The position numbers and the translations under genes were made by a program. From NCBI GenBank assembly GCA_963830105.1, contig CAWHLH010000003.1, positions 771,931-835,930 on the forward strand: a stretch of DNA of 64,000 nucleotides, written 5' to 3'. How positions within the stretch are numbered: position 1 is the stretch's first letter; every line of letters begins with the position of its first letter. Of the stretch, positions 39,802-58,381 are shown piece after piece. The DNA comes from an uncultured Gammaproteobacteria bacterium (GTDB taxonomy: Bacteria; Pseudomonadota; Gammaproteobacteria; DATFLG01). A model generated the notes under the pieces. That model saw only the letters and a list, made by a program, of their open reading frames with translations. It ran no database searches and had not been told where the DNA came from.

Positions 39802-39804
39802 GTT

Positions 39805-41860: not shown

Positions 41861-41876
41861 TGCAAATCCAGTGCCA
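41861..41876 (-). promoter_or_regulatory. Sigma-54 promoter for fliD, perfect consensus
   Basis: Minus strand reads TGGCACtggatTTGCA, exactly TGGCAC-N5-TTGCA. It starts immediately after the flaG stop and lies about 34 nt upstream of the fliD ATG. Confidence 0.75.
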
Positions 41877-42257: not shown

Positions 42258-42282
42258 GGCCGCGTGCCCTCCAGCGAAGACG

Positions 42283-42307
42283 CCTGCGGGGCGGGATGCC
42301 CCGCAGG
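42283..42307. terminator. GC-rich hairpin downstream of fliC (putative attenuator/terminator)
   Basis: cctgcgggg-cgggatg-ccccgcagg, a 9-bp perfect stem 20 nt after the fliC stop on the transcribed strand. The following tract CGUCUUCGCU is only weakly U-rich. Confidence 0.35.
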
Positions 42308-42326
42308 CTTACCGCGCGCTGGCCGA

Positions 42327-43178
42327 TTAGCCGAGCAGCTTGAGTGCGAGCTGAGGTATCGAATTGGCCTGAGCCAACATGGATACACCTGCCTGCTGCA
42401 GGATCTGGGCCCTGGAAAGTGCGGCCGTCTGTGCCGCATAGTTCGTATCCACGATGGTGCTGCGGGCCGCGGTCAGATTCTGCTGAGAGTTGGTCAGGTT
42501 GGCTACCACCGAGTTGAAGCGGTTCTGGATGGCGCCGAAGGTGGCGGACTCGGAGGCCACGGTCTTGATGTCGGCCTGAATGCTGGTGATTGCCGCCGAC
42601 GCGGCCGACTGGCTGCTTACCTTGATGGTGTTGGTAGCAGTCAGGGTGCTGCTGAAGCTATTCAGTTTGTTCGTGCCGTTGGCAAGGTTCACACCGGTGG
42701 CGGTGATCTGGTCGTTCGCGCTACCGTTCTGGCCCACCTGGAAAGTGATGTTGGTGCTGCCCGATAGCAGCTGCGTTCCGGCGTATTTGGTGGTTGTGAC
42801 GATCTGGGAGATCTGCTGGGTGAGCTGGTCCACCTCCTTCTGGATACCGCCGCGCGCCGCCGAGGACACCGTGCCGTTGGCGGCCTCCACGGCCAGCTGG
42901 TTGATACGCTGCAGGGAGTCGCTGATCTGCTGCATGGCCCCGCCGGCAGTCTGCGCCAGGGAGACACCGTCGTTGGCATTGCGGACCGCCTGGCCCATGC
43001 CGTTGATATCGCCAGTCATCAGCTGAGACGAGTAGTAACCGGAGGCGTCGGATGCGGCGTTCTGCACCCGCAAGCCCGACGACAGCTGCTGCAGGGCGTC
43101 CGACAGCGAGCTCTGGGACTTCGAGAGGTTGTTCTGCGCGTACAGCGACATCAGATTGGTATTGATGGTAAGTGCCAT
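42327..43178 (-). CDS. fliC: Flagellin FliC (short, 283 aa)
   Basis: MALTINTNLMSLYAQNNLSKSQSSLSDALQQLSSGLRVQNAASDASGYYSSQLMTG… is the N-terminal D0/D1. C-terminal …TAALSRAQILQQAGVSMLAQANSIPQLALKLLG. The short central region is Ser/Thr-rich (NSFSSTLTATNTIKVSSQSAASAAITS). Confidence 0.95.
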   Translation of the reverse strand: MALTINTNLMSLYAQNNLSKSQSSLSDALQQLSSGLRVQNAASDASGYYSSQLMTGDINGMGQAVRNANDGVSLAQTAGGAMQQISDSLQRINQLAVEAANGTVSSAARGGIQKEVDQLTQQISQIVTTTKYAGTQLLSGSTNITFQVGQNGSANDQITATGVNLANGTNKLNSFSSTLTATNTIKVSSQSAASAAITSIQADIKTVASESATFGAIQNRFNSVVANLTNSQQNLTAARSTIVDTNYAAQTAALSRAQILQQAGVSMLAQANSIPQLALKLLG

Positions 43179-43282
43179 GGATTCAGCCCTCTTGACACAC
43201 GGGCAATCACTCGATCGAAGCGCCCGCGGTTCATGTACCTAGCGGATATGCGCGGATTGCGCATTTACCGCTGCCAACTCCT

Positions 43283-43310
43283 GTATCGGTCAGCAATGGG
43301 CGAACTTTAG
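43283..43310 (-). promoter_or_regulatory. Sigma-28 (FliA) class-III promoter for fliC
   Basis: Minus strand reads cTAAAgttcgcccattgctgACCGATAc, i.e. TAAA-N15-(A)CCGATA(C) against consensus TAAA-N15-GCCGATAA. About 105 nt upstream of the fliC ATG. Confidence 0.6.
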
Positions 43311-43703
43311 GAACGGAAGGAGCTCCGCAGCGACAAAACCCGGAAACTCAACAAGGGCTGGGGGATAGCCGGCACTCGGACGCCAAATCCGGCTGTTTTA
43401 TAGTGATTTTATTGAGCCAACCGAGATCGACGGTCGCCTGAACAGTGACTTCCCAACTGTCCGGTCACCCGAGCCTATTCTCGGCAGGGTATGGGAGCTG
43501 CCCGGTTACCCTCCCGACAAACGCCGCCCCCCGGCCGGTGATGGGAATTGGGCAGCGCACGGTTCACCGAGCTCGGGGCACACTTCGGCGCGTTTCCACA
43601 GCATTTGTGGGAAGCCCGCCGCTCGCGACACAGGCCTGCCTTGCGATCAACGGCTTCTGTTTCCGCCCGCATTATCGTCAGCCCCGGAGCTGCATACCCT
43701 TCA

Positions 43704-43737
43704 GGGATCCGGAGTCCGCCAAAACTCCGGATCCCTG
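43704..43737. other. 12-bp perfect hairpin between the glycosylation operon and the fliC promoter
   Basis: agggatccggag-tccgccaaaa-ctccggatccct. The stem is perfectly complementary. No flanking U-tract on either strand. Confidence 0.5.
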
Positions 43738-43863
43738 ACCAACCATTTCCAGATACCTGCATTGACACTCTGCGCGCGCGACAAAGCAACCGCCGCGACC
43801 GAGACCTGCGTGCCGTCGCCCGCCGGTCATGCTGGGTTGGCTCCGTCGCATGGGCCAACATCC

Positions 43864-46275
43864 TCAGCCCGCCCCGGCAGTCTGTACGGCAGCCCGCTCT
43901 TCCGTCGTTTCCTGCCGACGGAGAATGATTTCGGCATTCTCAGCGGCGTTGATGGTGCGCTCGCGAAGTTCGCTGGAGAGGAATGGGCCATTGAACGCTT
44001 GTTGATACCAATGGCTGTATTCGCCGACAACGAAGTTCAGAAAATGCGACCATGGTCCGTAACCTATATTGAGGCAGGTCTGGCAACCCGCCGCATACTC
44101 TCCTGTCACCACCCCGTCTCGAATGAGACGGTATCCGGGACCACGCCAGATGTCCAAACCCGACTGCCGACTGACATCGCCCAGTGCCGGACTCAGGCTG
44201 TCATGGAAACAGCAAGTCTTCACGCGGCCGTTCTTACGCACATACAACGTCTTGAACGGCTCCATGCACGGATGATTGACCGGTTTGGCCGGTTTGGCCA
44301 TGCCGAGCAGGGCCGCCCGGTCAGAGGCCTCGGCATCGAACACCGTCGGCTGCTCTGCGCCGCGCTCACCCGGCTTCTTCGGCTTGACGGTCTTGGCAAC
44401 CGCCTTAAACTGAGTGATCGGAACGAACTCCACGGGTGTCGACGTGTCGCCGTCGCTGCCCCCCATCACAAAATCCGCCTTGCGTTGCCGCGCCTCCTCC
44501 TCATCGGCCACAACCGAGTGTTCGAACTGCTCGGCGCTCAGCCCGATGCCCAGTTGTTTCGCCAACGCCTTCGCTTGCTCGAGCTTCTGGCCCTCGACCC
44601 AGGGCCGGTTCACGGCAATGTGCCCCGAGACGACCGGGTTATCCGCCTGCCCATTCAACTGCTTGACGAAGATGTGATTCACTCCTAAGGATGCCATCAG
44701 CACCACGAATTGCGGCAGGCTGTCGATATGATGCTGGAACGACAGCGAATTGATGACAATGTTCGGAATCGGCGAGTTCAAGCGCCGCTTGGTCTCGGCC
44801 AAGCGGGCGATGCCACCCAGCACCTGCTCGAACACGCCACCCTGGTAGACGTTCTCATAGTCTTCCTTGGTGGCTCCCGAGAAGCTGATCGTGATGGCGC
44901 TTACCTTGCGTTCCACCAGAAATGTGCACAACTCTTCGGTAAGGTGCATGCCGTTGGTGAAGAAATCGATGGCGACTTCGAAAGGGGCCAGATAGTCAAT
45001 CAACTCACGGAACTGGGGGTGGATTGTGGGCTCTCCAAAACCGAAACAGTGCACGATCAGGGCGTGCTCAAGCACTTCGTCCATCGCACCGGCAAAAGCG
45101 TCCTTGTCGATGAAACCCCGCTCCTGGTTGCGCAACGTCTCGTACCGGTTCGGGTTCAATAGCGAGAAGTCGCGACACATGGCACACTTCAGATCACAAA
45201 CGTTGCTGACCTCGAGGAACACCTCGAGGGGATAGTCCGGATAGTCGCCCCCTTCGCTGAAATCGAGAAAGGACTGAAGTGTGTGACGCTTTGCGCCTGC
45301 AAGGCGACCCTCCGGTTGAGTCTCTTGCTCAGCCGACAACCGCCCTGGCGCGGGTGCGCCGTCGGTTTTCCGCCCGCTCGCATCGCGCAGCACCGACTGT
45401 TCGTCGCCTGCGGGGACAATCTCGCTGCCGTACTTGCTGGACAGCAGGACGTTCACCCTATCGATGGCCCGATTCGGCCCCGCATAGGCGGTTGCCTCAA
45501 GCAGCCCTTTGGAGTCGAGTCGTGGCCCGTAAATCAGTAGCGACGGCGTTATCTCGTCCGGATAGAACGCCGGGTGCACGTCCTCGTGAGTAGGGAATAC
45601 CAGTTCCAGAGGCAGCATTTGCACGGGAATTGCTTCCGAGTGCAACGCCAGTGTCAGCGCTATGGATTCCAGATCTCCCACTGTCCTATTGCCGAGACTC
45701 AGATAGTCGGCTTCTCTTCGAAGACGTAGTGAGTACGTACGCCATGCCTCGCGCAGCGGGACCGCAAATGCCCTCGGAACCACCATGAACGACGGATCGT
45801 AATAGGGGATCGACGGAGCATAGTCACTGATTGTCACGCAATGAGCGCTCGGCAGCTTCTGATCGAAGTGCGCGAACAAGCGCCGCCATACCGGAAGCGA
45901 AATAGGGCTGCGGCCGGCGGGTCGCACCGCAACCGCTCCCGGATTCAAGTACCCGGAAAAGTCGGCCGCAACCACCGAAGCGACATCCATTGCTACAAGC
46001 AGGTCCCAATTCCCATCGATGTGAAACAGTGGAGACCTGATGCCTGGCGCGTTGTGGTCATCATTGGCTGACGCCACCACCACCTCAATTCCATTGGCGT
46101 TCAGCATACTGCGTATTTGCGACGGGACGTCCGCAGAAAATACAGCCACAAAGCGGCTGGCGGTGATCGCACCGCCAAACTCCGCTGCCGTCGTGACAAG
46201 GATACTGGCCCGCAGCATGTCGGGCTCGTCCGGTCCTACGATGAAGGCAAATGCAACACGCTCGTTCATTTCCAT
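43864..46275 (-). CDS. Radical SAM / SPASM-domain enzyme fused to a ~330-aa N-terminal domain of unknown function (glycosylation island)
   Basis: Radical SAM core CDLKCAMC (Cx3Cx2C) preceded by DYPLEVFLEVSNV. C-terminal Cys cluster HPCMEPF…KTCCF…GCQTCLN is SPASM/twitch-like. A low-complexity K/P/A linker lies between them. Likely start is the ATG at 46275 (GAGGAA RBS). The track ORF starts at a TTG at 46305. Confidence 0.75.
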   Translation of the reverse strand: MEMNERVAFAFIVGPDEPDMLRASILVTTAAEFGGAITASRFVAVFSADVPSQIRSMLNANGIEVVVASANDDHNAPGIRSPLFHIDGNWDLLVAMDVASVVAADFSGYLNPGAVAVRPAGRSPISLPVWRRLFAHFDQKLPSAHCVTISDYAPSIPYYDPSFMVVPRAFAVPLREAWRTYSLRLRREADYLSLGNRTVGDLESIALTLALHSEAIPVQMLPLELVFPTHEDVHPAFYPDEITPSLLIYGPRLDSKGLLEATAYAGPNRAIDRVNVLLSSKYGSEIVPAGDEQSVLRDASGRKTDGAPAPGRLSAEQETQPEGRLAGAKRHTLQSFLDFSEGGDYPDYPLEVFLEVSNVCDLKCAMCRDFSLLNPNRYETLRNQERGFIDKDAFAGAMDEVLEHALIVHCFGFGEPTIHPQFRELIDYLAPFEVAIDFFTNGMHLTEELCTFLVERKVSAITISFSGATKEDYENVYQGGVFEQVLGGIARLAETKRRLNSPIPNIVINSLSFQHHIDSLPQFVVLMASLGVNHIFVKQLNGQADNPVVSGHIAVNRPWVEGQKLEQAKALAKQLGIGLSAEQFEHSVVADEEEARQRKADFVMGGSDGDTSTPVEFVPITQFKAVAKTVKPKKPGERGAEQPTVFDAEASDRAALLGMAKPAKPVNHPCMEPFKTLYVRKNGRVKTCCFHDSLSPALGDVSRQSGLDIWRGPGYRLIRDGVVTGEYAAGCQTCLNIGYGPWSHFLNFVVGEYSHWYQQAFNGPFLSSELRERTINAAENAEIILRRQETTEERAAVQTAGAG

Positions 46276-46562
46276 GCGAAATTCCTCTTCCACTCGTGGA
46301 ACCAAAGCCGACGAGAGACTGCTCCGAAGGGATGGCCGGCCTTCGGATCGCTCTTACAACGGCATGCCCCGAAGGTGCCTACGGTCGGATCGAAGGGGGG
46401 ACTGCCTCGAACTCGCAAGGCCATGCCCCCTTGTATCCCAAGAACCCCCAGACGGAATTAACGCGTCACGGGTGTTCGATCGATCTGCGCCCGCCCCCCC
46501 CCTTCAACGGATGCCACGATGCATTCCTGACGTCATCGCCCAAGGCCCAACGCAACTGGGGT

Positions 46563-49500
46563 TTACCTGTCCGACGCCGGCAGTAGCGCCTCCATCCACT
46601 CATCAAGGTGGTCATCGAGCATCCATTGGCTTCTCACCCATTCGCGCAGCTGCACTCCTTCCTGCTCCGCCGCGTCAAGATCGTGGACCCGGTCCCGTAT
46701 CGCATTGATCCATGCGCTGGCCGTATTGGCCACCCGCGTCACCGGAGCGTTGCGGTACGGTTCGATGTCCGTGCATATCACCGGGCAGCCCAGGACCCCG
46801 TATTCCAGCAGACGTAGATTGCTCTTGGCCTCGTTGAAGCTGTTGTACTCGAGCGGCGCCACGGCGATATCCAGACCCAGAGCCGCCAGGGCTGTTGGGT
46901 AGTCGTCGTACGGCACCGGCCCGTGGAACTCCGCCACATACGGCCGGATCGGCTCGGGGCACATGCCCATGAACACCCAGTCCACCTCCCGGGCGGTTTC
47001 TCGCACGACCTGATCCAGCAGTTGCAGGTCGCCTTCGTGCTGAAGCGCCCCCACCCATCCGATGCGCGGCCTGTCGCCGACTCGGCGGCGGACTTCCAGA
47101 TCGGCCCAGCGGTGATCCAGCCTGTTGGGCACGATGCGAATGTCACCGATGTAACTGCGGAAGTGATGGCCGAGCGCTTCAGTCGTGACAATCAGCCGAT
47201 CGCACAGAGACAGGCATTCTCGAAGGCGTTTCTTTATATCTTTATAGATGGTGGATCGTAGCGGATTCTTGGCGGGCAGCGCAGTCATCAGATCGTCCTG
47301 CCCGAAGGTGACAAAGGCGCCACCGCCGCGCCGGTACTGCCGCAGCGCCTCGATGTGCGCGTCGTGGACCGTGTTGTAGAGCAGCAGGCTGTCAACGTCC
47401 AGCCTGGCCAATTCGACCGGGCCCGGCACGCGCACCTGGTCGGGGTAAGTTGGAACCTCTGCCGTGTTGGCAATCCCCCGGCGCCCAAGGACATGAAGGG
47501 GTTGGGAGCCACGATACTCCCAGGACCCGGCGGAGCCGAACGCCATCCCCAGTATGCGCGGCAGGTCGTGGTTGTCCCGCGCAGACCACGCGGGCAGATC
47601 GTCCTCCAACGCCACGTCCGGTCGATGCAGGGACAAAGCCGGATGAAACGCCGGATCGTTGGCGAGCCGCGGCAACCAGCGCGCCCGCAGCCCCATCACT
47701 TCCTTCTCCGCTCCCTGCCCCGTGGTATCGGGCTGTCCGGCAAATATCGTCACGTGCGGCGTCCATATCACGCGTCGCCCGCGCTCCTGGGCCCGCAGAC
47801 ATATTTCCGTATCGCCGTGGTGGCGATTCGGCGCCAGCATGTCGATACCTAAATCGGCGTACAGCGCCTTCTCGATCAACAGGCCATCCCTGGAAACTGC
47901 TGACATCTCCTGGGCAACCTGAGCGCGCCCGAAATAGCCAGGTGCCGAATGGGTGAGCCCCGGCTGCAGCGGGGCCGCTATGCCGTCGGTACCCAGGCCA
48001 AGAATCTTACCGATGCCCCGAATGGACTGATCCGCACCGACGACGCGAGCACCGACAATGCCGGCCTCGGAGGGTAGCGCCTGCGCCACCATCCGCTCGA
48101 CCCAATTCGGTTGCACCACGCGCATGCCGTCGCACACGAACAACAGATACTCCGCCTCCACCGCGCCAATATCCTGCGGCGTCTCGAGCAGACCGATCCG
48201 GGCGTCCCGGTCGGCCAATACCCTTAAACCCTGCGCCACACTGTGATCCCGGTGCGCCAGACTAAGCCAGACGCGCATATCCGGATACGTCGTCGTCTCC
48301 AGAACCGATTGCACGCTGTTGGTGACTTCGTCAGCGCTGCCGCGGCCATGGACGACGACTGCGACTTGCGGCAAGCGCATCGGCTCGTATTCAACGCGCC
48401 AAGTCTCGCGCGCAATCCCCGGTTGTACAGCCGCCTTTGTGCCGCAGCGACTCAGATGCTCGGTCACTATGGCCATCCCGAGGACCGTCGCCTTCTCGCT
48501 GGACGTGCGGTTCGCGTCGAGGCGATGGTAGAGAATGTGTGGAATATGCCCGACCGCGCCGTCACCGCACCGTTCGATGATGCGCAACACGGCATCGTAG
48601 GCCTCCATTCCGTCGAGGCAAACGTAACCTCCCAGTGCGAGCAGTACCTCACGCGCCACCAGACAAAACCGCCCCACATAGGCCTGCCCGCGCAGCCATT
48701 CGAGATTGACGTCCGGCTTCAGGCGTGGCTCGTACTCACGTCCGTCGGCTCCAATCCGATCCTCGTCGGTGTATACAAACCGCCATTTCTCGTGCCTCTG
48801 GATATAGTCAGCGCATTGCAGAAGCAGCGAAACGTCGAACCGATCCCCCGGCCCCACCAGGCCGACCCAATCCGCCTCGACGTCACCGATGACCCGATTC
48901 ACTGCCTCGAGCCATCCGCCCCCGTCGACCTCCACCCACCGTAGCGCGGGATGCTGCGAGAACAGGGGATCGGGCGCTGGGCAATCCGCCACGACCGAGA
49001 GCTTCCAGCGCCCGTAGTGCTGCGCCGACACGGATTCCAGGGTGTCCGGCAAGCCGGACATATCCTTTTCCGACACCACCATCACCAGGTGCATCCCCGG
49101 CTGCGATGCCTTCCCCTCCACCGCCTGCCGCAGCTGATCGAGCTGCTCCGCCGTCGGTGCGCGCGCTGCGCGCCACCTTTCATACGCTTCGACCAACCGG
49201 TCCCTGACCTTTTCCGGCGACAACTTGTTGTCGGCCACATCGAGCAGCCCCGTCACCAACTGGCGCGACCCATCCCTGCCATGGAGCAGTTCGGAATAAA
49301 CAGCGTCATAGTCGCCGACGTTGTCCTCCATTGACTTGTGCACCAACCCCTCGAGCCCTGCGTGGACGCCCGTGAGCGAACTGCGGTCCTGCGCCAGTTC
49401 CAGGAGGCGCTTCGCCAATGCAGCCGGGTCCGAGGGCGGGACCAGAAAACCGGTAACCCCGTCGACCACCCGTTCGGGAATGGCCCCCACCGCCGCCGCG

Positions 49501-52469
49501 ACAACCGGCACACCCATGGCCTGGGCCTCGCTCACCGTCAGACAGAACGTTTCGTCCCACACCGACGGTATAATGACAACGTCCACGCGCCCAAGGAGCT
49601 TCGGCAGTTCTTCAGCCGAATAATTCCCGTGCAGCCTCAGGCCAAGCGATACCGCTCGTGCCTTGATGGTATCCTGGACCCCGCCGAACACTTCGACCTG
49701 CACCGCTTCGCCGCGCATCCGCTCCACAGCATCGAGTACCGTGTATGCCCCCTTGCGCTCGGTGAGGTTGCCGAGAAATCCGACCCGAAAGGTGCTGGTG
49801 CGCGGCGGGCGCGCTGACCTACCCTTTACTACGACGCCGTGGGGAACGACGCGGATCTTCGCACCCACCGTTTCCCCCAGCGCACGACAGAACTGGTCGC
49901 GCACGAAGGCCGACGGGGCAATAAGAATATCCGCCGCCTCCAGCACCGACTGGACCAGCGCCTGACGCTCGCCCATATACTGATTCAGCGCCGCGGGCGC
50001 GTGGATGCCGCTCAATTCACGCTTGGCGGACAGGCAACGCATGCACTGCGGGTCGGCGCCGTTGCTCTGCTCCCGTCCACAGCGCCTGTATTCCGGAAGC
50101 ATCAAGTTGTACTCGGGGCACAGCAAGAAATAGTCGTGGAGCGACACTACAACTTTCTTGCCGAGCGCCTTGGCCAGTACCGGCAACAGCAGACTGTCCC
50201 AGTGCGCCAAATGCTGAAAATGAACGATGTCGTAGTCACCCCCGGCTACAAAGCGGGTGAAGTTCCCTTCCACAATCGCATTGTCAAGATCGCCTGCAAT
50301 GCCGACAAACCGCTCCCTGGCCACCACGTTGCGCTCTCTGAGTTCAACGACCCGCAGGTGGGAATCACGCTGCTCCGAATGAAATTCGACATAGTCGCTT
50401 CTTTCGGCTTTTGTATTCCGGCCAGGGAACATGACCGTCGAGCGGTAGCGCTTTTCGAGACCGTCTATCAAACGCCGGGTATGCAACTCCGTGCCGCCCG
50501 GCACATCGAAGCTGTGAATCACATGCAGCACGTGCGGCCGGACTTCGCCCGGTTTGCGCTCCAGCGCCGTCTGCAGGCGCTCCTGCACCTCGCGAAGCGG
50601 ATTATGATGGCAGAAGACCTGCACCGCGACGTCGTACTTCGGCCAGCGCTTCGCGAGCACTTGCGCGTTGCGCAGTCGCCGCTTGCCAATCTGTTTTATG
50701 GAACTGAAGGAGGCCTCGCCATAATGGTGCACGTAGGCGTCGTCACAGCAGACGGTTTCGATTCCTACGTGCCAGGCGCGCATGCAGAAATCGCTCTCCT
50801 CGCCGTACCCAAGACCGAAGACCGAATCGAACACCCCGACCCGGTCGAGGGTTGCGCGGGTGATGAGCATGCAGAATCCCACGGCTGTCGGCAAACGCGG
50901 ATATGAACGCGGCGCATTCTCCGCCACGATCGCCGCAAACCTGTCCACCGACATGTCAGGCGGCAGCCGGTTGGCGGCGCTCATGACCGGAACCGAAAGA
51001 ATCGTGGCATTGTTCGACAAGGGCGAAACTATGCCGATTGCCGGATCGCTGAGGCGACAACGGTCCAGACGTGCCAGCCACCCGGCCGTCACCTCGGTAT
51101 CTGAGTTCAAGATCACCACATCATGGCGCGACAGCATGAAGCCCCGATTGACGTTTCCGATGAACCCGAGATTGCTGTCCGAGGTAACCACGCGCACACG
51201 CGGATCGGAAGATTCAAACCCCCTGAGCAATGGCAGGACCCGCGGATCGGAACTCGCGTCATCGAGGAGAATTACACAGTGCTTGGGATCGGTGTACCGC
51301 AACACGCTTTCCACGCAGCGCTTGACGTGATCGTAGGCGTTGTAGATCGGTATCAGGATATCGTATGCGGTCTCACTCTCCGCCAGCGCTTCGGCCGGCG
51401 GCATCCTGCGGACCAGCGTGAGCGCCCGATCGATGGCACTCCTGATACGCACGGCCGCACGGTCACGCTCTGGTCCCTGATTCGAGCTCTCGAGCACCGA
51501 CTGGTTCGCTGAGCGAGACTTGGACTCGATCGCATCAAGCCGACGCCGCAGTTGCTCCGGATCGCGGTCGTAGTTCGTGCTATCGCCATAGCGCGGCGTA
51601 GCCAGCAGCGCAACGGCCAGCTCATCAAGCCTTTCGACGGGCGAGCACTGTGCGATCGCAGCTTGCAAATTCACTACTCGCTCGCGGGGAACGAACAGCA
51701 GCGAGCTTTCCTCGGCCACGCCGAACATGTTATCCGGATTGCCGCGGAAATTTTCTATGTTGAATGCCGGGAAACGACAAAAGTATGCAGCGTAGTCGTA
51801 TTCTCTGAAGAACTTGACGATATCCCAACCGCGCTCAAGATCGTTGCACTCCAGATAGACCACCGATCGGGAGCGCGCCAGGTTTTGCTGCGCGCCGCGA
51901 AGGACGTCAAGTTCCATCGCCTCAACATCGATCTTGATCAGATCGACGTTTTCCTCGCACACACTGTCGAGCGTGATGACGGGTACCGTCAACATCTCCA
52001 TGTCCGGCTGGGCAGGGTTCTGGCCAGCGGCCAGAGACAATGCCCCGACATTCTGTCGTTGTGTGGGATCGATGGCAGGGATCGATACCGTCCCCGCAAC
52101 GCACGAGACCGCCGCATCGAACGCCCGGACGTTGCGGATTGCGTTCTGGACCAGATTCCGTGTTAAGACCTCGAAGACCTGCGGCTGGGCCTCGACCGCA
52201 TAGACGCGTCCGCTATCGCCGGCAATGCTCGAAAGGGCGAGGGTGTGAGTGCCTACGTTCGCACCGGCATCAATCACGACGCCGCCCGGCGGTACGAATT
52301 GCGCGAGGAACTCTATCTCGGCCTGCGCCCACTCGCCGTAGGCCTGCAAGGCATCGCCGATGGGACCGTCGAAGGGGAAAAATGACATCGAACCGTACCG
52401 GCACGGCAGGGTCTGCACGATATCATCCATCGGCTGCAACGCGGTTGTCGTATCAACGCTACGATTCAT
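46563..52469 (-). CDS. Giant (1968-aa) multidomain flagellin-glycan enzyme: FkbM methyltransferase - GT2 - GT4 - GT2 - GT2 - C-terminal GT-B-like domain
   Basis: Residues 60-250: VVIDAGANVGTHTLALS…VYAVEAQPQVFEVLTRNL…IKIDVEAMELDVLRG is an FkbM-family SAM methyltransferase. Then GT-A segments with DxD-like motifs (LLDDASSDP, NSDTEV; YTDED). A GT4-like region (…ETFCLTVSEAQAMGVPVVAAAVGAIPERVVDGVTGFLVPPSD). The C-terminal ~350 aa are paralogous to the C-terminus of the next gene. Start ATG at 52469 lies 11 nt after the stop of the upstream gene. Confidence 0.8.
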   Translation of the reverse strand: MNRSVDTTTALQPMDDIVQTLPCRYGSMSFFPFDGPIGDALQAYGEWAQAEIEFLAQFVPPGGVVIDAGANVGTHTLALSSIAGDSGRVYAVEAQPQVFEVLTRNLVQNAIRNVRAFDAAVSCVAGTVSIPAIDPTQRQNVGALSLAAGQNPAQPDMEMLTVPVITLDSVCEENVDLIKIDVEAMELDVLRGAQQNLARSRSVVYLECNDLERGWDIVKFFREYDYAAYFCRFPAFNIENFRGNPDNMFGVAEESSLLFVPRERVVNLQAAIAQCSPVERLDELAVALLATPRYGDSTNYDRDPEQLRRRLDAIESKSRSANQSVLESSNQGPERDRAAVRIRSAIDRALTLVRRMPPAEALAESETAYDILIPIYNAYDHVKRCVESVLRYTDPKHCVILLDDASSDPRVLPLLRGFESSDPRVRVVTSDSNLGFIGNVNRGFMLSRHDVVILNSDTEVTAGWLARLDRCRLSDPAIGIVSPLSNNATILSVPVMSAANRLPPDMSVDRFAAIVAENAPRSYPRLPTAVGFCMLITRATLDRVGVFDSVFGLGYGEESDFCMRAWHVGIETVCCDDAYVHHYGEASFSSIKQIGKRRLRNAQVLAKRWPKYDVAVQVFCHHNPLREVQERLQTALERKPGEVRPHVLHVIHSFDVPGGTELHTRRLIDGLEKRYRSTVMFPGRNTKAERSDYVEFHSEQRDSHLRVVELRERNVVARERFVGIAGDLDNAIVEGNFTRFVAGGDYDIVHFQHLAHWDSLLLPVLAKALGKKVVVSLHDYFLLCPEYNLMLPEYRRCGREQSNGADPQCMRCLSAKRELSGIHAPAALNQYMGERQALVQSVLEAADILIAPSAFVRDQFCRALGETVGAKIRVVPHGVVVKGRSARPPRTSTFRVGFLGNLTERKGAYTVLDAVERMRGEAVQVEVFGGVQDTIKARAVSLGLRLHGNYSAEELPKLLGRVDVVIIPSVWDETFCLTVSEAQAMGVPVVAAAVGAIPERVVDGVTGFLVPPSDPAALAKRLLELAQDRSSLTGVHAGLEGLVHKSMEDNVGDYDAVYSELLHGRDGSRQLVTGLLDVADNKLSPEKVRDRLVEAYERWRAARAPTAEQLDQLRQAVEGKASQPGMHLVMVVSEKDMSGLPDTLESVSAQHYGRWKLSVVADCPAPDPLFSQHPALRWVEVDGGGWLEAVNRVIGDVEADWVGLVGPGDRFDVSLLLQCADYIQRHEKWRFVYTDEDRIGADGREYEPRLKPDVNLEWLRGQAYVGRFCLVAREVLLALGGYVCLDGMEAYDAVLRIIERCGDGAVGHIPHILYHRLDANRTSSEKATVLGMAIVTEHLSRCGTKAAVQPGIARETWRVEYEPMRLPQVAVVVHGRGSADEVTNSVQSVLETTTYPDMRVWLSLAHRDHSVAQGLRVLADRDARIGLLETPQDIGAVEAEYLLFVCDGMRVVQPNWVERMVAQALPSEAGIVGARVVGADQSIRGIGKILGLGTDGIAAPLQPGLTHSAPGYFGRAQVAQEMSAVSRDGLLIEKALYADLGIDMLAPNRHHGDTEICLRAQERGRRVIWTPHVTIFAGQPDTTGQGAEKEVMGLRARWLPRLANDPAFHPALSLHRPDVALEDDLPAWSARDNHDLPRILGMAFGSAGSWEYRGSQPLHVLGRRGIANTAEVPTYPDQVRVPGPVELARLDVDSLLLYNTVHDAHIEALRQYRRGGGAFVTFGQDDLMTALPAKNPLRSTIYKDIKKRLRECLSLCDRLIVTTEALGHHFRSYIGDIRIVPNRLDHRWADLEVRRRVGDRPRIGWVGALQHEGDLQLLDQVVRETAREVDWVFMGMCPEPIRPYVAEFHGPVPYDDYPTALAALGLDIAVAPLEYNSFNEAKSNLRLLEYGVLGCPVICTDIEPYRNAPVTRVANTASAWINAIRDRVHDLDAAEQEGVQLREWVRSQWMLDDHLDEWMEALLPASDR

Positions 52470-52480: not shown

Positions 52481-55400
52481 CTAGCTGTAATGCCGGGCGA
52501 TCGAGACCGGCCGGCACTCCGCAACCGGGCGGGTCTTGTCACCGGGCGTCAGGGACGCCATCCAGTCGTCCAAATGGTCCTCGAGCATCCATCCGTTCAG
52601 CACCCAATCCTTCAGCCTGTCCCCTTCCTGCGCGGCGGCGCCCAGGTCATGCGCGCGTTCGCGAATCGCGTCGATCCACGCGGCAGGATCATTGCGTACA
52701 CGCTTGACTGGGCCGCCACGGTACGGTTCGATATCCGTACACACCACCGGCCAGCCCAGAACTCCATATTCCAGGATACGCAGATTGCTCTTTGCGATGT
52801 TGAATGGATGGTCTTCCAGGGGTGCCACGGCCAGATCCAGATTGAGTGCAGCGAGCCTGACCGGGTACTGGGCGAATTCCCCGAACTCGTGGACCTCCCG
52901 CACGAACGGACGCAATGCATCCGGACACATTCCGAAGAACACCCAATCCACCTCTTTGGCGGTGGCCTGGACGACCGGGATGAGCAGTTCGAGGTCGCCC
53001 AGGTGCTGCTGACCGCCGGCCCACCCCACTCGGGGACGAGGCCCCTGACGGCGCAGCGAACGTAGCGTGCCCCAGCGGGAGCGTGGCAGATAGTTGGGAA
53101 GGACACGTATGTCGTCGATGATGTCCCGATACACCTCCGCGATGGGGTCAGTGGTAACGATCAACCGATCGCAGCAGCTGAGCGCTCGGCGGGTGCGCGC
53201 CTTGATATCACGGAAAAGCAACTTCCGACGGGAATTCTTTTCCGGTACCTGCGTTTTCAGGTCTTCCATGTCGAAGACCCGGAATGCCCTGTTGAAACGC
53301 TTGTAGCTTTCAAGGGCGTCCAGGTGCGCGTCATCCAAGGTCCCCTGCAGCAGCAGGGTGTCCGGATCGAGACGTTCCAGTTCGACTATCGAGGGTACCC
53401 GCGGCCAGCCCTCCTGGGGTGCGGCAAAACCGCAGCGGGCACGCGCAGCGGCGGCCAACGCGTTCAAAGGCGCCAGAACGCGGTACTCCCCGCAGCCATA
53501 GGTGTCGACGGGGATACCGAGGATACGGGGGCGGTCGTTAAATGACGGGTCCCAGCTCGCGGTCGACTCGGTGCGCGTGCGGAAGTCCCTGTGGGACAGG
53601 CTCAGGTTTCGGTTGTAATACGGATCGTGCGCCAGATCTCCGAGCCAGCGTTGGAGCATCCGGTTTCCCTCTTCCCCGCAGCCCGGTCGCTCGCCTCCCG
53701 CGCACTGCGGCGGTTGCCAGCCCAGCAGCGCGTGCGGTGTCCACACAACTCGCAGGCCCCGGTTGCGCAACCGAAGGCAGAGATCGGCGGGGTACCAAAC
53801 GTTGGGAAGCATCTGTTCGTCGAAGGGGCCGATGGCTTCGAAAGCAGCGCGGCGGACCATCAAACACGCGCCAGGCACGGCGGACACGCCTTGATCGGTC
53901 AGGGCGCGCCCAAAATAGCCCGGATCCCATGCCGACAGACCTGCGAATGCATCTGCGGCTACGCCGCCTATCCCCAGCAGCAGGGCACTGTGTGCCACCG
54001 TTTTGTCCGGCCCCACAACCCGTGGCGCCACCACGCCGACATCCGGTCGCTGGGCATGGTTGAGCAGTTCTTCCAGCCAGGTTTCCTGCACAAACACCGA
54101 GTGCCTGTCGATGAAAACCAGATATTCACCTGTCGCCACCTCCACTGCCGCATTGTAGGCGGCGGCGCGATTGCCCGGGGTCGGCGCCGTCACCACCCTC
54201 ACGAGTCCCTGGTGGCGCAACAAGTCCAGGTAGTCGTAGGTGTCTTCATCCTCACTACCCTCGTCCACGATCAGCAATTCCATGTGTGCATACCGGGTAG
54301 CGTCGCGCAGGCTGTCGATGAAGATTTCCAGGACATGGAGGTCGTCACGGACAGCAACAATGACCGAGACCATGGGATGAGCGGCATGCTGATAGCAGAC
54401 CCGCAGGGTCTGCGTCGCCAGCCCCTCGGCGACCTCCGCTGTCTGTCCGCAGCGCTCGAGATGGGCTGCCAACGCCGCACGGCGCCACGGCATAAGCCGG
54501 AGGTCGCCGCGCAGGGCTTCGGTGACGGGTCCCCGATGATACAAGACATCGGCGACATGCCCGATGCACTCGGTCCCGCAACGCTCCAGCACCTTCAATG
54601 CCAGTTCGTAATTCCGAATTCCCGGCTCCGAGCTGTAGCCCCCGGCTGCCAGCAACACCTCCCGACGCACGAGACAGAAACTGCCGACCCCGTCCTGGGA
54701 ACGCAGCAGGTCAGGGTCGGCATCTGTCTTGAACCACGGGTCTGCGCGCCTGCCGGCGGCGTCCATCCGGTCCTCGTCACTGTAGATCAAGGCCCAGTCC
54801 GGAGACTGTTGGAGATGATCGATACAGGCAAACAGGGCATTCGGTGCCAGCCGGTCGCCGGGGCGGATCAGCCCGACCCAGTCGGCGTCGGTATCTGCAA
54901 TCGCCCGGTTGATGGCGGACTCCGGATCGTCCCCACACTGGTACCACTCCAGGTTGGGCTGTTCGCCGAACAGGGCGTCCGGGCAAGGCTCCTCAGCGAC
55001 AACGGTCAACCCCCACCCGGGATAGAGCTGGTCTGAGAGCGACTGCAGGGTAGGGGCCAGAAGTTGCGTTTCGCCGGTCCGCAACGGTGCGATGAGATGG
55101 ACGGAGGGACGTACACGCCAGTTCAGCACCATACGTTCGGCCAGAAGTTCCCCGTCAGACTCGCGCAGGGCGTAGATGCGGGTCCAGTCGGCATAGTCAA
55201 GGGGCCGGTCTGGCCCCTGTGCATCACCATCGAAGGGCATCGGCGGCGGTGCCGGCGAGAGGGCCGCAAACACATCCTCCAGCGCATCGAGTTCCAAAGC
55301 CGCCTGATCGAGAAATGCCGCGTCCGGTGCCACATCACCGGCCGCGACGCTTGCGAGATGGCCGTACACCCCATCCACGAGGGATCGAAGCCCTCGCGGC

Positions 55401-57529
55401 TCGCCAGCCGAGACGGCGTCGCTGTGGTGACGTAGCGCGGGCGTCAGAAACGCCTCGACGTCGGTCTCAACCCGCTCATCGGAAAGCGGCAATCGGAGAC
55501 CAAGCGAACCGGCAATACGCGATACCGTGCCACGCCAATCCGAAAGCAGCTGATCGTAGGTCGTAAAGACTCGCAGTGCTCCTCGACTATGGCGCTCGGC
55601 CTCCAGCACATGACGCAGCCAAAGCAACAGCCCCCGATTGCGGGACAACCCGTCCCGCCGTTGCAGCGAGTCCGCGACCTCGTATGGGCTTCTCAGCGGA
55701 ATAACATACCTGGGAGCCGCACCCATATCGGCCAGAACCCGTTGCCAGAGCGGCAGCAGCCGACACAGACGCGGATCCTTTGCACCCCACAGCGGGCGCC
55801 CCGCGAACTCCCGTCGGAGAGTGGCGCCAAGCTCGTGCTGCAGAGCCCACAGTCGGGGCCGTTCCCAACACCCTTCCGGCAGACGCCGCGGATCCGACCA
55901 TGACATGCCCAGTTCGCCCAGCACCTGATCATTCAGGACCATGATGTCGGCGTGTTCCCAAAAGCCGCGTTCATTGGCAGCGTTGCCAGCCAGTAGCGAG
56001 CTGCCGAGTTCGACCCCGTGCAGGTTCAGCACTCGGGTCAGAGCTGAGGTGCCGCTGCGGTGCATACCCAGAACCAGCAGCGCGGCAGGTTCATCCGTGC
56101 TTGGCTCGGGGCGCGCCTGGGGATACGCGAGTCCCTTGCCGGCTGCACCGCAGCTCCCGGTGTACTGGCACAAGGTCAGCTCACGGGGAGTCGGCAGCGA
56201 CAGAACTTCCAGAGGAAGCTCATCGCTGAACCGGCTCTGTCGGTCCGGGACCGCCTCGCTGGCGTCCCCGGAACGGTACGCCACAACCAGGGCGCCCGGG
56301 CGAAGATACGGAGCGTACTCCTGCAGCTCCGCAGCCTGTCCGGTTGCCATACCATCCAACACCACCAAGTCGACGCCTTCGCGCAACGCCGGCTCGGCGG
56401 GCGCGTCATCCAGCAGTCGGACGATCTGGTCTACACCGGCGCGGCCCAGGCGTTCGGCCGCAATCCTCCGGCAGTCAGGATCTGCTTCGACACTGATCAG
56501 CTGACCGATGCCGTTTTGTGCCAACGCGCGGCCAATGGCTTCGCCCACATAGCCGCGCCAGGCACGCGTCTCCACGACCAGTCGCGGCTTGACGGCGCGC
56601 ACAAGCCCGTACAGGAACTCCAACGTCTCCACATCGGCGGTCCAACCATCGAACATCGACCACAGGCGGGGTTCACGGGCCGAAGGCGCAGCTAATGAAA
56701 GCTCCGGATAGATCGACTCCCCCTGGAACAGCAGCGAAGCGCGCTGCGGCCTGGGCCGTGTGCGCCAGGCCTCCATGCGGCTGGACAAACCTTCGGTTCC
56801 AAGCCACGGCTTTGCATCGTAGCTGCGCGCATAGTACTCCGCACGATCGTCCAGCTCCCCTGCCGCGTGACCGAGATTACGGGCGAGATAGCGAGGCGCC
56901 CAGGCGCACATATAGCCGGCATGTCTGACGGACTCGGAAAGCGCCACGTCGTCCGGCAGCAGTACGCCATGCTTATTGGTGTTGGAGCCAACCCTGATGC
57001 CGGCGTCCCACAGCTCCCGTCGCAACAGACAACTGGTGCCGACATTGCCGACAGCCTCATAGAGAAAGTGCCCGTTCTGGCTGCGGAGCACGGCGGGCTT
57101 GGTTTGCCAGACCTCTTCGTCCTCCGGCACTGGCGCACACAGCGACAACTGACCGAGTCCGGGGAAACAGGCGAACAACTCAAGCGCTTCTTCCACCCAC
57201 CCGGAGCGGTACTCGAAGTCATTTTCGCTGACATGCAGTAGCCCGGCGCGACTTTTCCGAAGTCCCTCGTTGATTGCGGCCCCGCCGATGTTCTCCGGCA
57301 GGTAGATCGCCTGCGCTGCAGGTGTGGCCGCACAAAACTCTTCGATGACGGTACGGGAACCGTCCGACGACCCGTTGTCCACGATAAACAGCTCATACGG
57401 GACGGTAACGGTGTCGCGGTAGCTTTCCAGCGTACGACGCAACAGGTCGGCCCGGTTCCAGTTGAGCACGGTTGTGCTGATCACCGGTGCTGACGCCTTT
57501 TCGCCCACGCATAGATCTCCTCTGTACAT
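52481..57529 (-). CDS. Giant (~1680-aa) multidomain flagellin-glycan enzyme: GT2 - class I SAM methyltransferase - sulfotransferase-like - GT2 - GT2 - C-terminal GT-B-like domain
   Basis: VISTTVLNWNRADLL…FIVDNGSSDGS is GT2. LVVETRAWRGYVGEAIG…ISVEADPD…VDLVVLDG is a TylF/class-I methyltransferase. LLVLGMHRSGTSALTRVL…WGAKDPRLCRLL…YVIPLRSPYEVADSL resembles the PAPS 5'-PSB (RSGTS) and 3'-PB motifs of sulfotransferases. Two more GT-A segments (…LLIVDEGSEDED…). C-terminal domain shared with the 1968-aa protein. Start is uncertain: ATG at 57529, or a GTG at 57508 preceded by an AGGAGA RBS. The track ORF begins at 57622. Confidence 0.75.
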   Translation of the reverse strand: MYRGDLCVGEKASAPVISTTVLNWNRADLLRRTLESYRDTVTVPYELFIVDNGSSDGSRTVIEEFCAATPAAQAIYLPENIGGAAINEGLRKSRAGLLHVSENDFEYRSGWVEEALELFACFPGLGQLSLCAPVPEDEEVWQTKPAVLRSQNGHFLYEAVGNVGTSCLLRRELWDAGIRVGSNTNKHGVLLPDDVALSESVRHAGYMCAWAPRYLARNLGHAAGELDDRAEYYARSYDAKPWLGTEGLSSRMEAWRTRPRPQRASLLFQGESIYPELSLAAPSAREPRLWSMFDGWTADVETLEFLYGLVRAVKPRLVVETRAWRGYVGEAIGRALAQNGIGQLISVEADPDCRRIAAERLGRAGVDQIVRLLDDAPAEPALREGVDLVVLDGMATGQAAELQEYAPYLRPGALVVAYRSGDASEAVPDRQSRFSDELPLEVLSLPTPRELTLCQYTGSCGAAGKGLAYPQARPEPSTDEPAALLVLGMHRSGTSALTRVLNLHGVELGSSLLAGNAANERGFWEHADIMVLNDQVLGELGMSWSDPRRLPEGCWERPRLWALQHELGATLRREFAGRPLWGAKDPRLCRLLPLWQRVLADMGAAPRYVIPLRSPYEVADSLQRRDGLSRNRGLLLWLRHVLEAERHSRGALRVFTTYDQLLSDWRGTVSRIAGSLGLRLPLSDERVETDVEAFLTPALRHHSDAVSAGEPRGLRSLVDGVYGHLASVAAGDVAPDAAFLDQAALELDALEDVFAALSPAPPPMPFDGDAQGPDRPLDYADWTRIYALRESDGELLAERMVLNWRVRPSVHLIAPLRTGETQLLAPTLQSLSDQLYPGWGLTVVAEEPCPDALFGEQPNLEWYQCGDDPESAINRAIADTDADWVGLIRPGDRLAPNALFACIDHLQQSPDWALIYSDEDRMDAAGRRADPWFKTDADPDLLRSQDGVGSFCLVRREVLLAAGGYSSEPGIRNYELALKVLERCGTECIGHVADVLYHRGPVTEALRGDLRLMPWRRAALAAHLERCGQTAEVAEGLATQTLRVCYQHAAHPMVSVIVAVRDDLHVLEIFIDSLRDATRYAHMELLIVDEGSEDEDTYDYLDLLRHQGLVRVVTAPTPGNRAAAYNAAVEVATGEYLVFIDRHSVFVQETWLEELLNHAQRPDVGVVAPRVVGPDKTVAHSALLLGIGGVAADAFAGLSAWDPGYFGRALTDQGVSAVPGACLMVRRAAFEAIGPFDEQMLPNVWYPADLCLRLRNRGLRVVWTPHALLGWQPPQCAGGERPGCGEEGNRMLQRWLGDLAHDPYYNRNLSLSHRDFRTRTESTASWDPSFNDRPRILGIPVDTYGCGEYRVLAPLNALAAAARARCGFAAPQEGWPRVPSIVELERLDPDTLLLQGTLDDAHLDALESYKRFNRAFRVFDMEDLKTQVPEKNSRRKLLFRDIKARTRRALSCCDRLIVTTDPIAEVYRDIIDDIRVLPNYLPRSRWGTLRSLRRQGPRPRVGWAGGQQHLGDLELLIPVVQATAKEVDWVFFGMCPDALRPFVREVHEFGEFAQYPVRLAALNLDLAVAPLEDHPFNIAKSNLRILEYGVLGWPVVCTDIEPYRGGPVKRVRNDPAAWIDAIRERAHDLGAAAQEGDRLKDWVLNGWMLEDHLDDWMASLTPGDKTRPVAECRPVSIARHYS

Positions 57530-58381
57530 CGGCCCAACCGGTCTCCAGCGCGATCTGACCGTTTGGCAGCAGGGCGGCGACGGAAATTCGACACCCAATG
57601 GAACAATCAAGCAAAGCAACAACGGGCCGAATCAGTTGGTTAGCGCTGGTTGTACGAAAATGGCCGATCCGGTTGCAGCTCGCTGGCTAGCTGCTGCAAG
57701 TGCTATGCCACTTGGGTTGGGATTCGGCCCGCCACTGATGGGCCGCGGCGCTCTGACTGACCTTCCCCGGCCCCTTACCCCCCGCAACTGCGCCAGCCGT
57801 TCTGACGGCGACCGCACCGGCGGCGCCCACCATTTGCATCGGCGAAGTACGGGGTGCAGGGATGCACAAGGGACATGTCCGTTTCGCTGCCAATCACCCC
57901 GAACGAGGGGTCGCTGCGCGGGCTTTGCAGGGTGCGCCCTGGGGATAGCGAGCACTGCGCCGCCCACAGCGTTGCGATTTTTCACCTGCCACTTGATGGG
58001 CACCAACCATGAACGCCGGCTTGCACGCGGACCCCGCTTGCCGGACACCGGCGACAAGTTGCCGTCTCAGGGTCCGAGGCGCCGCCACCGGGGCGGCCCG
58101 GATACCCCCCGGACCGCGCTTTCCACGGGGCGGTCGCGCAATCGGACTCGCGAAGAACGCGAGCGGGCTCGCATCTTTCAACACACATGGCTTGTGTCGG
58201 GGAGGAAGTGCCGGCACTCGGACGGGTGCGTTTCGGACGCTGACGCAGCCGGACCTTGCTGGTCCGCAACAGGCAGTTCCACCGGGGTAACCGGTAATGG
58301 CCTTGTCCGCCGCCCTTACAGGCTCAACCGATTTCGCGTCTGGTCGACGCAGTCACGCGAAAAGAATCTCGTAATCAACAC

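Follow-up and report, generated by a model that had tools for sequence, protein, structure and literature searches.

What might a radical SAM enzyme contribute to the glycosylation of a bacterial flagellin, and why should it carry a long N-terminal domain without a name? These questions are raised by a locus in the window, by which we mean the whole 64,000-nucleotide stretch of gammaproteobacterial DNA that was analysed. All features given below with coordinates lie on its minus strand, where the hook-junction genes flgK and flgL are followed by two giant glycosyltransferase/methyltransferase proteins, the radical SAM gene, and then fliC and fliD. The gene has the orientation of the island genes and immediately precedes fliC. 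It is an intact ORF in the ORF list (43864..46275 including the stop codon) and encodes an 803-aa fusion of a putative pseudo-GT8 domain with a twitch-type radical SAM enzyme. The product is 100% identical to the 803-aa MAG protein P0001, which is named 'radical SAM/SPASM domain-containing protein [Gammaproteobacteria bacterium]' at NCBI. Starting from an in-frame TTG at 46305 would lengthen the protein by 10 residues; we favour the ATG at 46275 because a Shine-Dalgarno-like site, GAAGAGGA, lies 7 nt 5' of it, because P0001 has the same 803-aa length, and because the start Met is common to all five full-length homologues. Promoter and terminator scans of 42200-46700 gave counts at shuffle level, and an Rfam scan of 38000-47000 returned zero matches.

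The radical SAM core and its auxiliary cluster

Sequence and structure model together establish the C-terminal 480 residues as a radical SAM enzyme with one predicted auxiliary [4Fe-4S] cluster, of the twitch type. Pfam PF04055 (Radical_SAM) matches residues 355-495 (44791..45213) at 35.0 bits against a gathering cut-off of 29.5, and the AF2 model of the core (pLDDT 95.2) has a partial TIM-barrel fold. The initial annotation had recognised a radical SAM core from the motif CDLKCAMC (residues 360-367, 45175..45198), and this assignment is upheld both by the Pfam match and by the homologue alignment, in which the CxxxCxxC of the SAM-binding [4Fe-4S] cluster (C360-x3-C364-x2-C367) is invariant across 116 homologues. 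Motif, profile score over the curated threshold and fold all place the protein in the radical SAM superfamily. A SAM-binding-type motif, GFGEP (G412-E415), also lies within the core, and all 116 sequences carry G95/E96 of the core alignment. The core model further shows one additional conserved helix at the N terminus, a long helical tail at the C terminus and a helical insertion between barrel and twitch (residues ~585-665, 44281..44523) that is variable in sequence in the alignment and modelled with confidence, judging by secondary structure and pLDDT.

The auxiliary-cluster domain (residues 670-734, 44074..44268) scores 36.6 bits with Pfam SPASM against a gathering cut-off of 21.5. Full SPASM domains hold two auxiliary clusters, as in anSME, PqqE and MftC, and twitch domains hold one, as in BtrN, MoaA, SkfB, SpeY and BlsE. 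The C-terminal Cys residues here are C670, C688, C689, C731 and C734, in the pattern C670-x12-G683-x4-C688(C689) ... C731-x2-C734. Only four of these positions (C670, C688(/C689), C731 and C734) are invariant among the 116 homologues, with one more nearly invariant. No Cys follows C734 in the alignment, and the seven-Cys SPASM motif, CX9-15GX4C - gap - CX2CX5CX3C - gap - C, is not matched. The conserved Cys are thus enough for the single auxiliary [4Fe-4S] cluster that we predict. The Pfam SPASM model is passed despite the missing Cys because it spans the part that SPASM and twitch domains have in common. A profile of the family aligns with the BtrN twitch at E 5.3e-6, Cys on Cys. Of the SPASM/twitch-like cluster described in the initial annotation, the twitch, BtrN-like part (CX12GX4C ... 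CX2C) therefore stands, with its Cys kept in the 116 homologues as that annotation had asked to be checked, and the anSME-type part, with seven Cys and two clusters, does not; a full-SPASM, anSME-like reading was rejected by the Cys count.

The core belongs to a widespread family without a curated model. A search among 8,000 word-sharing candidates gave 162 matches, and the family occupies 50 loci among species-representative genomes. None of the curated NCBIfam radical SAM equivalogs (W-cofactor maturase, mycofactocin, BlsE, HpnH and others) matches at its trusted cut-off. The top match, TIGR04317, reaches 95.6 bits against a cut-off of 380, and all 25 NCBIfam matches listed fall far under their own cut-offs and cover the barrel only.

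The N-terminal domain and its lost signature

The first ~330 residues had been described as lacking obvious motifs, which is correct at the sequence level, since no Pfam or NCBIfam model matches residues 1-330. Residues 1-287 (45415..46275) form a GT8-like GT-A fold, intact and modelled with confidence, and are followed by a variable, gap-rich linker of ~40 residues (288-328, 45292..45414) with large indels and zero conservation in the alignment. Pfam PF01501 (GT8) does not match the domain, and only one of 42 family members gives a faint match (E 0.008). A word-indexed search with the domain found only two weak free-standing relatives, whereas an exhaustive profile search revealed the family, a GT8-like group with >1,000 representatives and without a Pfam model of its own.

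Fused and free-standing members differ at the catalytic signature. In the alignment, the core N-DxD-D-N-G-N-H positions are kept in 40 of the 41 free-standing relatives, a few of which vary at Y158, Q204 or H250, and most of the signature is lost in all six fused copies. In the protein studied here, D97-V-A99 stands in place of the DxD, and I79, D160, S162, S204, V226, I248 and G250 in place of N, N, G, Q, N, H and H. Six positions (N79, one DxD Asp, either the first or the second, N160, Q204, N226 and H248) show a conservation of 95% or more among free-standing members and are replaced in every fused copy; H250, 88% conserved in the free-standing family, is replaced in the fused copies as well. 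We take the lost positions to be the expected Mn2+, nucleotide and donor-sugar ligands, an assignment based on the order of the motifs and on what is generally known of LgtC and glycogenin rather than on superposition. The domain also diverges more than the core: identity is 28-33% between proteins whose cores are 58-60% identical, an evolution about twice as fast. Loss of the DxD and His argues against GT8-type catalysis and stops short of proving the domain inert. We read the domain as a probable pseudo-enzyme because the signature is kept in free-standing and lost in fused copies and because its identity is lower than that of the cores. On this reading it would illustrate cleanly how a glycosyltransferase fold can be co-opted for a non-catalytic role.

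The glycosylation island and the wider family

Pfam matches agree with the glycosyltransferases and the sulfotransferase-like domain that had been noted beside the gene in the flagellin glycosylation island. The upstream neighbour (46563..52469, 1968 aa) combines an FkbM methyltransferase with GT2 and GT4 domains and further weak GT2/GT4 matches, and the next protein (52481..57622, 1713 aa) combines GT2, Methyltransf_24, sulfotransferase-like and GT2 domains. The sulfotransferase-like domain (55343..56137), with the P-loop LGMHRSGTSAL, matches Sulfotransfer_3 at E 1.3e-4 over profile positions 3-214 of 216, under the gathering score. It has a free-standing homologue in another radical SAM locus, L045 (E 1.7e-48), and is related to the N-terminal domain of P0014 (BLASTP E 3e-10); a homologous N-terminal sulfotransferase-like domain is fused to the radical SAM core in P0014, P0015 and P0018. 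Downstream lies the gene for a 283-aa flagellin (42327..43178; Flagellin_N and Flagellin_C), whose centre is Ser/Thr-rich, which has no Cys, and which is the presumed glycan carrier. On the other side the island is bounded by flgL (58382-59284) and flgK (59291-61195), both assigned with Pfam.

Usable flanks are available for four close homologues, two of which occupy the same flagellar position, P0006 directly after flgK-flgL and P0005 two genes after flgL. Flagellar placement of the fused gene amounts to three independent loci only. P0005, P0004 and P0002 adjoin or lie near giant glycosyltransferase proteins, and giant proteins homologous to the 1968-aa neighbour flank the radical SAM gene in loci L003 and L009. 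A TPR/NKWYS protein encoded 3' of the gene in close homologues, in P0006 with a 1679-aa protein 3' of it, is absent from the window and is not homologous to the 1713-aa protein. A PDB search with this TPR/NKWYS protein was dominated by TPR matches.

Across homologues the core is fused to GT8-like, GT4, GT2, Stf0, Sulfotransfer_1/3, sulfotransferase-like and methyltransferase domains, and sulfotransferases, glycosyltransferases and sulfatases recur as fusion partners or neighbours of the family. The recurrent sulfotransferase and glycosyltransferase fusions suggest glycan chemistry of a kind not yet recognised. Over 54 loci of the wider family the gene context is heterogeneous, and for many members no glycan cluster can be recognised around the gene; in Methylolobus aquaticus, a cultured carrier, two convergent paralogues lie amid housekeeping genes that offer no hint of function. 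A P0014-type sulfotransferase-like N-terminal domain in the many homologues of ~830 aa was considered and rejected, as only three have one; another 21 have a C-terminal domain unrelated to it. The family includes no characterised member, so its substrate class rests on guilt by association.

Proposed role and comparison with known enzymes

Radical SAM enzymes cleave SAM reductively, and the 5'-deoxyadenosyl radical so formed removes a hydrogen atom from the substrate. Those that act on sugars are mostly of the single-auxiliary-cluster, twitch type. We propose, with about an even chance of being right, that this two-domain protein acts as a tailoring enzyme in the flagellin glycosylation island, with the N-terminal domain as a non-catalytic binding or docking module. 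By analogy with the superfamily, the enzyme would cleave SAM, and the resulting radical would take a hydrogen atom from a probable carbohydrate substrate, whether an O-glycan sugar of flagellin or its activated precursor. A carbohydrate is favoured because the core is fused to glycosyltransferase, sulfotransferase and methyltransferase domains and because the gene lies in a flagellar and glycosyltransferase island. The outcome could be any of the conversions already described for sugar-acting members, the two-electron oxidation of a C-OH to a ketone, an epimerisation, a dehydration or a decarboxylation, so that the sugar dehydrogenase chemistry suggested in the initial annotation is one option among several, and the auxiliary cluster may serve as electron acceptor or substrate anchor. 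The N-terminal domain, presumably of GT8-like glycosyltransferase descent with its metal- and sugar-binding signature lost, most likely transfers no sugar and probably docks the glycan, the glycosylated flagellin or the giant glycosyltransferases at the radical SAM active site. It might also act jointly with the sulfotransferase-like domain encoded next door, a link drawn because that domain is homologous to the one fused to the core elsewhere.

The proposed role has to be weighed against readings in which the substrate, the N-terminal domain or the pathway differs. The protein could be a maturase that modifies a side chain or the backbone of flagellin or a partner enzyme, by anSME-like conversion of Ser or Cys to formylglycine, epimerisation or cross-linking, with the pseudo-glycosyltransferase domain docking the protein. 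One clade of the wider family does adjoin a Cys-type sulfatase, the arrangement typical of sulfatase maturases. However, the window holds no sulfatase near the gene (no homologue in 33864-58000), the flagellin has no Cys, the four conserved auxiliary Cys compare with two auxiliary clusters in anSME, and the recognised fusion partners are carbohydrate- and sulfate-transfer domains, not peptidases or transporters. Neither a precursor nor its recognition domain was found: no PqqD/RRE domain is detected by Pfam in the radical SAM protein, in which the domain before the core is GT-A, and 43100-43900 holds no convincing precursor ORF, the ORFs there being Arg/Pro-rich as in GC-rich DNA, although small ORFs can escape detection. 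The earlier statement that no small precursor ORF lies nearby thus agrees with the ORF list, and a peptide substrate is without support because RRE and precursor are both missing; a RiPP maturase of the sactisynthase, SuiB or PqqE type was rejected on the same two grounds. We regard a protein-modifying maturase as unlikely.

A bifunctional enzyme, in which an active GT8-like domain of metal-independent or otherwise unconventional mechanism attaches a sugar for modification by the radical SAM domain, or in which the two steps run in the opposite order, would fit the intact, confidently modelled GT-A fold, the conservation of D105, W130, W178, G34-G35 and P167 across fused and free-standing members, and the one DxD Asp left in each fused protein except P0006. 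Against it, the expected ligand positions are replaced in every fused copy and the domain evolves about twice as fast as the core, and we consider such an enzyme quite improbable. We likewise see only a slim chance that the gene has no tie to flagellin glycosylation, whether as an island passenger or as an enzyme for a lipid, cofactor or cell-surface polysaccharide with an incidental flagellar position. P0002 stands beside giant GT2/GT4 proteins with no flagellar gene within 10 kb, most of the wider family is non-flagellar, and P0122, a free-standing GT8-like relative, belongs to a Wzx/Wzy-type polysaccharide cluster; yet in three independent loci the fused gene is found between flgL and fliC or directly after flgL, and in the window its orientation and position just before fliC match the island.

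The tailoring role could extend further. The core family may be a dedicated partner of sulfotransferase-type enzymes in glycan tailoring. Here it would perform on the flagellin-linked sugar a radical oxidation, epimerisation or C-H functionalisation, and the sulfotransferase-like domain next door would carry out a sulfation or similar transfer coupled to that step, with substrate delivery by the pseudo-glycosyltransferase domain. We hold this coupled reading to be rather doubtful; if true, it would, to our knowledge, bring radical SAM chemistry into the maturation of bacterial protein glycans for the first time and would predict a sulfated or otherwise unprecedented flagellin sugar. Flagellin glycans influence filament assembly, motility, and immune or phage recognition, and their known tailoring consists of glycosyl, methyl, acyl and amino transfers. 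In full-text searches of a literature library, no paper described radical SAM chemistry in an island for flagellin glycosylation, which, together with the lack of a curated family, accords with the earlier remark that no such modification is known to have been described. Confirmation of the chemistry would allow annotation of both families and give a handle on unusual sugars of bacterial surface proteins.

The fold neighbours of the core split evenly between sugar-acting (BlsE, BtrN, DesII) and peptide-acting enzymes (SuiB, SkfB, PqqE, anSME). In contrast to the seven or eight auxiliary Cys and two clusters of anSME (PDB 4K36-4K39), the protein here has four conserved Cys, enough for one cluster, and lacks the CX5CX3C...C part, and no anSME model is among its NCBIfam matches. 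Solved structures of GT8 retaining glycosyltransferases (glycogenin, LgtC, the WbbM C-terminal domain and GlyE) share 9-14% identity with the N-terminal domain, and GT8 enzymes have a DxD, a C-terminal His and Asn/Gln where the domain has D-V-A and replaced Asn/Gln/His positions. BtrN (PDB 4M7S/4M7T), the 2-deoxy-scyllo-inosamine dehydrogenase of the butirosin pathway, is the founding twitch radical SAM enzyme. The likeness to it lies in the twitch Cys pattern, sequence similarity between the barrels being undetectable, and BtrN has ~250 residues whereas the core here has ~480, with the additional N-terminal helix, an insertion of ~80 residues before the twitch, the helical C-terminal tail and the GT-A fusion. 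BlsE (PDB 7VOB), the cytosylglucuronate decarboxylase of the blasticidin S pathway, shares 16% identity, and with its NCBIfam model the protein reaches only 22 bits where the cut-off is 400. BlsE is encoded in an antibiotic cluster and is free of a GT-A fusion, whereas the protein described here lies in a flagellar island and carries one.

Gene, flagellar setting and sulfotransferase-like neighbour

The radical SAM gene (window 43864-46275, minus strand) is a single unbroken ORF of 803 codons, whose start ATG at 46275 has GAAGAGGA upstream at 7-nt spacing. The same initial Met is found in all five full-length homologues, and an in-frame TTG ten codons 5' of this ATG is an unlikely alternative start. 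The identical 803-aa, MAG-derived database protein P0001 is named 'radical SAM/SPASM domain-containing protein [Gammaproteobacteria bacterium]' by NCBI. On the minus strand, the gene order is flgK (59291-61195), flgL (58382-59284), a 1713-aa GT2/methyltransferase/GT2 protein (52481-57622), a 1968-aa FkbM-methyltransferase/GT2/GT4 protein (46563-52469), the radical SAM gene, a gap, flagellin (42327-43178), fliD (40463-41827), a 301-aa protein (38837-39742) whose c-di-GMP receptor domain is an atypical PilZ (tPilZ), and FleQ. Flagellin glycosylation islands classically occupy this position, and the initial annotation had placed the gene in such an island. The 685-nt gap between its stop codon and the flagellin start (43179-43863) contains no credible ORF, Rfam match or above-chance promoter/terminator pattern, and is presumably where the fliC promoter and leader lie.

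Of the five close fused homologues, the P0006 gene lies immediately after flgK-flgL and the P0005 gene after flgL, in a cassette that also encodes giant GT/MT proteins; P0004 has the same type of cassette on a short contig, and P0002 lies near giant GT2 and GT2/GT4 proteins. In this cassette (L003:2683-8009, L063:2110-7447, L002:10001-13647), a PhyH-type Fe/2OG dioxygenase gene (~440 aa) is followed by the GT8-like radical SAM gene and then by a TPR plus NKWYS (PF10364) protein gene; PhyH and TPR/NKWYS genes are absent from the window.

The sulfotransferase-like domain noted beside the gene is indeed present, as a divergent domain (55343-56137, minus strand, with an LGMHRSGTSAL P-loop) set within the 1713-aa protein, with a methyltransferase domain on one side and GT2 on the other. 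It matches positions 3-214 of 216 of Sulfotransfer_3 at E 1.3e-4, below the gathering score, and the flagellin glycan may accordingly be sulfated. A homologous N-domain (E 3e-10) occurs in the radical SAM fusion P0014, and likewise in P0015 and P0018, and another radical SAM locus has a free-standing copy (L045:1996-3162, E 1.7e-48). The P0014-type fusion is a Rosetta-stone link between the radical SAM gene and its 1713-aa neighbour.

Radical SAM core and auxiliary cluster site

Pfam assigns residues 355-495 to Radical_SAM and residues 670-734 to SPASM, both above gathering score, with no match in residues 1-350, and the reported CDLKCAMC motif is in place at residues 360-367. The protein lies outside every curated family, because its matches to 42 NCBIfam radical SAM families, nearly all confined to the barrel, score far below each family's cut-off (at best 95.6 bits against 380). 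Across 116 homologues, C360, C364, C367, C670, C688, C731 and C734 are invariant and C689 is nearly so; C410 and C450 are kept in the closest relatives only. The C-terminal pattern, C670-x12-G683-x4-C688 ... C731-x2-C734, corresponds to the opening half of the canonical SPASM motif, followed by CX2C. No Cys follows C734, and the CX5CX3C...C portion, the ligand set for a second auxiliary cluster, is absent. The core-family profile matched the BtrN twitch domain in the PDB (E 5.3e-6), with the four BtrN twitch Cys aligned to the four auxiliary Cys, and more weakly anSME and BlsE. By its Cys pattern and this match, the domain is therefore of the twitch type, with ligands for one auxiliary cluster. 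An auxiliary Cys cluster had been correctly recognized, and its 'SPASM' label is here corrected to twitch; the doubt whether these Cys are conserved is answered, because they are conserved in the homologues.

A model of the core (residues 320-803), built with the 116-sequence alignment, has a mean pLDDT of 95.2 and a pTM of 0.93. Its structural neighbours are BlsE (23.1), SuiB (22.4), SkfB (20.3), MoaA (19.8), PqqE (19.2), ChlB (19.1), anSME (18.8), DesII (16.3) and BtrN (15.5), and the modelled fold firmly places the enzyme in the SPASM/twitch branch. Unlike these neighbours, the core carries a conserved N-terminal helix, a ~80-residue helical insertion between barrel and twitch, and a long helical tail.

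The N-terminal domain

Residues 1-283, used as query in a word-indexed search, brought up just two free-standing relatives, both weak, which have DCD and NSG motifs. Searching 1.84 billion representatives exhaustively with a profile returned 1291 proteins at E <= 1e-3 (236 at E <= 1e-30), mostly free-standing and 280-350 aa long. This family (P0123-P0269; for example L059:10001-10999) has no Pfam or NCBIfam model and is essentially unannotated by Pfam, with a faint GT8 match in one of 42 members. Its signature comprises eleven positions (N79, D97-x-D99, D105, Y158, N160, G162, Q204, N226, H248 and H250), ten of them conserved at >= 95% and H250 at 88% among 41 free-standing members, 40 of which retain the signature core. 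From motif order we take these positions to be the Mn2+, nucleotide and donor-sugar binders of GT8 enzymes such as LgtC and glycogenin. The corresponding residues of the studied protein are I, D-V-A, D, Y, D, S, S, V, I and G. The signature is degenerate to a similar extent in the other five radical-SAM-fused N-domains, and also in P0123, the nearest free-standing relative of the fused domains, whose gene adjoins a PhyH gene (L061:11078-12355). The gene for P0122, which has an intact signature, lies in a polysaccharide cluster with Wzz, Wzy and flippase genes and overlaps a sulfotransferase gene (Sulfotransfer_3). Identity among the fused N-domains is just 28-33%, against 58-60% for the attached cores, a gap that fits relaxed, non-catalytic constraint. 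We conclude from these comparisons that the domain is a putative pseudo-glycosyltransferase from an unannotated GT8-like family; the initial description, 'no obvious motifs', holds for Pfam and gives way to a recognizable, degenerate signature.

Core family and proposed function

A search among 8,000 candidates gave at least 162 significant matches, mostly 38-47% identical and over the core region only. The 116 aligned members divide into core only (50, some with GT4, GT2, Methyltransf_24, TPR or B12-binding domains), core with a conserved ~130-aa C-terminal domain (22), with another C-terminal domain (21), with the ~130-aa domain and an Stf0 sulfotransferase (9), with the GT8-like domain (6), with Sulfotransfer_1/3 (3), with the sulfotransferase-like N-domain (3), and with the ~130-aa domain and a GT-D-like region (2). 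The ~130-aa domain (33 of 116; e.g. P0007, P0008, P0010, P0029, P0108, P0113, P0118) lies between core and sulfotransferase in the Stf0 fusions, has the consensus GHLD..G..L.GW.W.P..P..R..V....G........A..FR.DL..AG.GDG.YGF and matches nothing in Pfam. A sulfotransferase, sulfotransferase-like or NKWYS domain is fused or within 10 kb at 17 of 54 non-redundant loci, and a sulfatase is present at nine. We infer enrichment of sulfotransferases from their rarity in bacterial genomes.

In a Pseudomonadales clade, the radical SAM gene has a sulfatase gene abutting or overlapping it. The clade's core-only gene (L007:10001-12753; L021, L024, L027, L029, L055) is preceded at most loci by a gene for a PfkB sugar kinase. 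After it comes a Cys-type sulfatase gene (motif C-T-A-S-R), overlapping it by 4 nt in L007; radical SAM enzyme and sulfatase look like a maturase-sulfatase pair, despite one auxiliary cluster only. Cultured carriers of the family, which could serve for genetics, include Methylolobus aquaticus, Methylotetracoccus oryzae, Reyranella soli, Thiospirillum jenense and Allochromatium tepidum. The methanotroph M. aquaticus has two convergent paralogues of 637 and 658 aa (L010:9968-11881, plus; L010:11954-13930, minus), surrounded by housekeeping genes and with no glycan genes nearby.

Sequence and modelling establish three parts: a radical SAM barrel bearing its SAM-cluster motif, a four-Cys site of the twitch type and a GT-A domain that appears catalytically degenerate. 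In radical SAM enzymes generally, reductive cleavage of SAM yields a 5'-deoxyadenosyl radical, which takes a hydrogen atom from the substrate. The substrate would be a flagellin-glycan sugar or precursor, and the reaction a BtrN/SpeY-type dehydrogenation, HygY-type epimerisation, BlsE-type decarboxylation or AprD4-type dehydration. The pseudo-GT domain may bind substrate or partner proteins, a role played by GtfB, the non-catalytic GT-fold subunit of the GtfA-GtfB O-GlcNAc transferase, and the radical step could be functionally tied to the adjacent sulfotransferase-like domain. Taken jointly, sugar tailoring with a binding module and a sulfotransferase-like partner has, in our judgement, roughly an even chance of being right. 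A protein-directed maturase is the main rival and rather unlikely; the core's structural neighbours do not separate sugar from peptide substrates. That the enzyme is bifunctional, its glycosyltransferase still active, seems distinctly unlikely given a GT-A fold with a degraded signature, and an incidental location is slightly more improbable again. Among the 54 loci, flagellar genes accompany only the GT8-like-fused clade, and within that clade P0002 has none within 10 kb.

The protein's architecture and its genomic setting are on firm ground and open a way to new glycan chemistry that can be tested directly, in a host known as an uncultured MAG. The twitch family, the pseudo-GT8 fusion, the island position and the sulfotransferase pairing appear in no curated model and in no paper of the full-text library searched. 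The radical SAM superfamily and both folds are already known; new are the uncharacterised twitch family itself, the fusion of its core to a putative pseudo-GT8 domain, the conserved place of the fused gene in flagellin glycosylation islands and the recurrent pairing of the twitch core with sulfotransferase-type domains.
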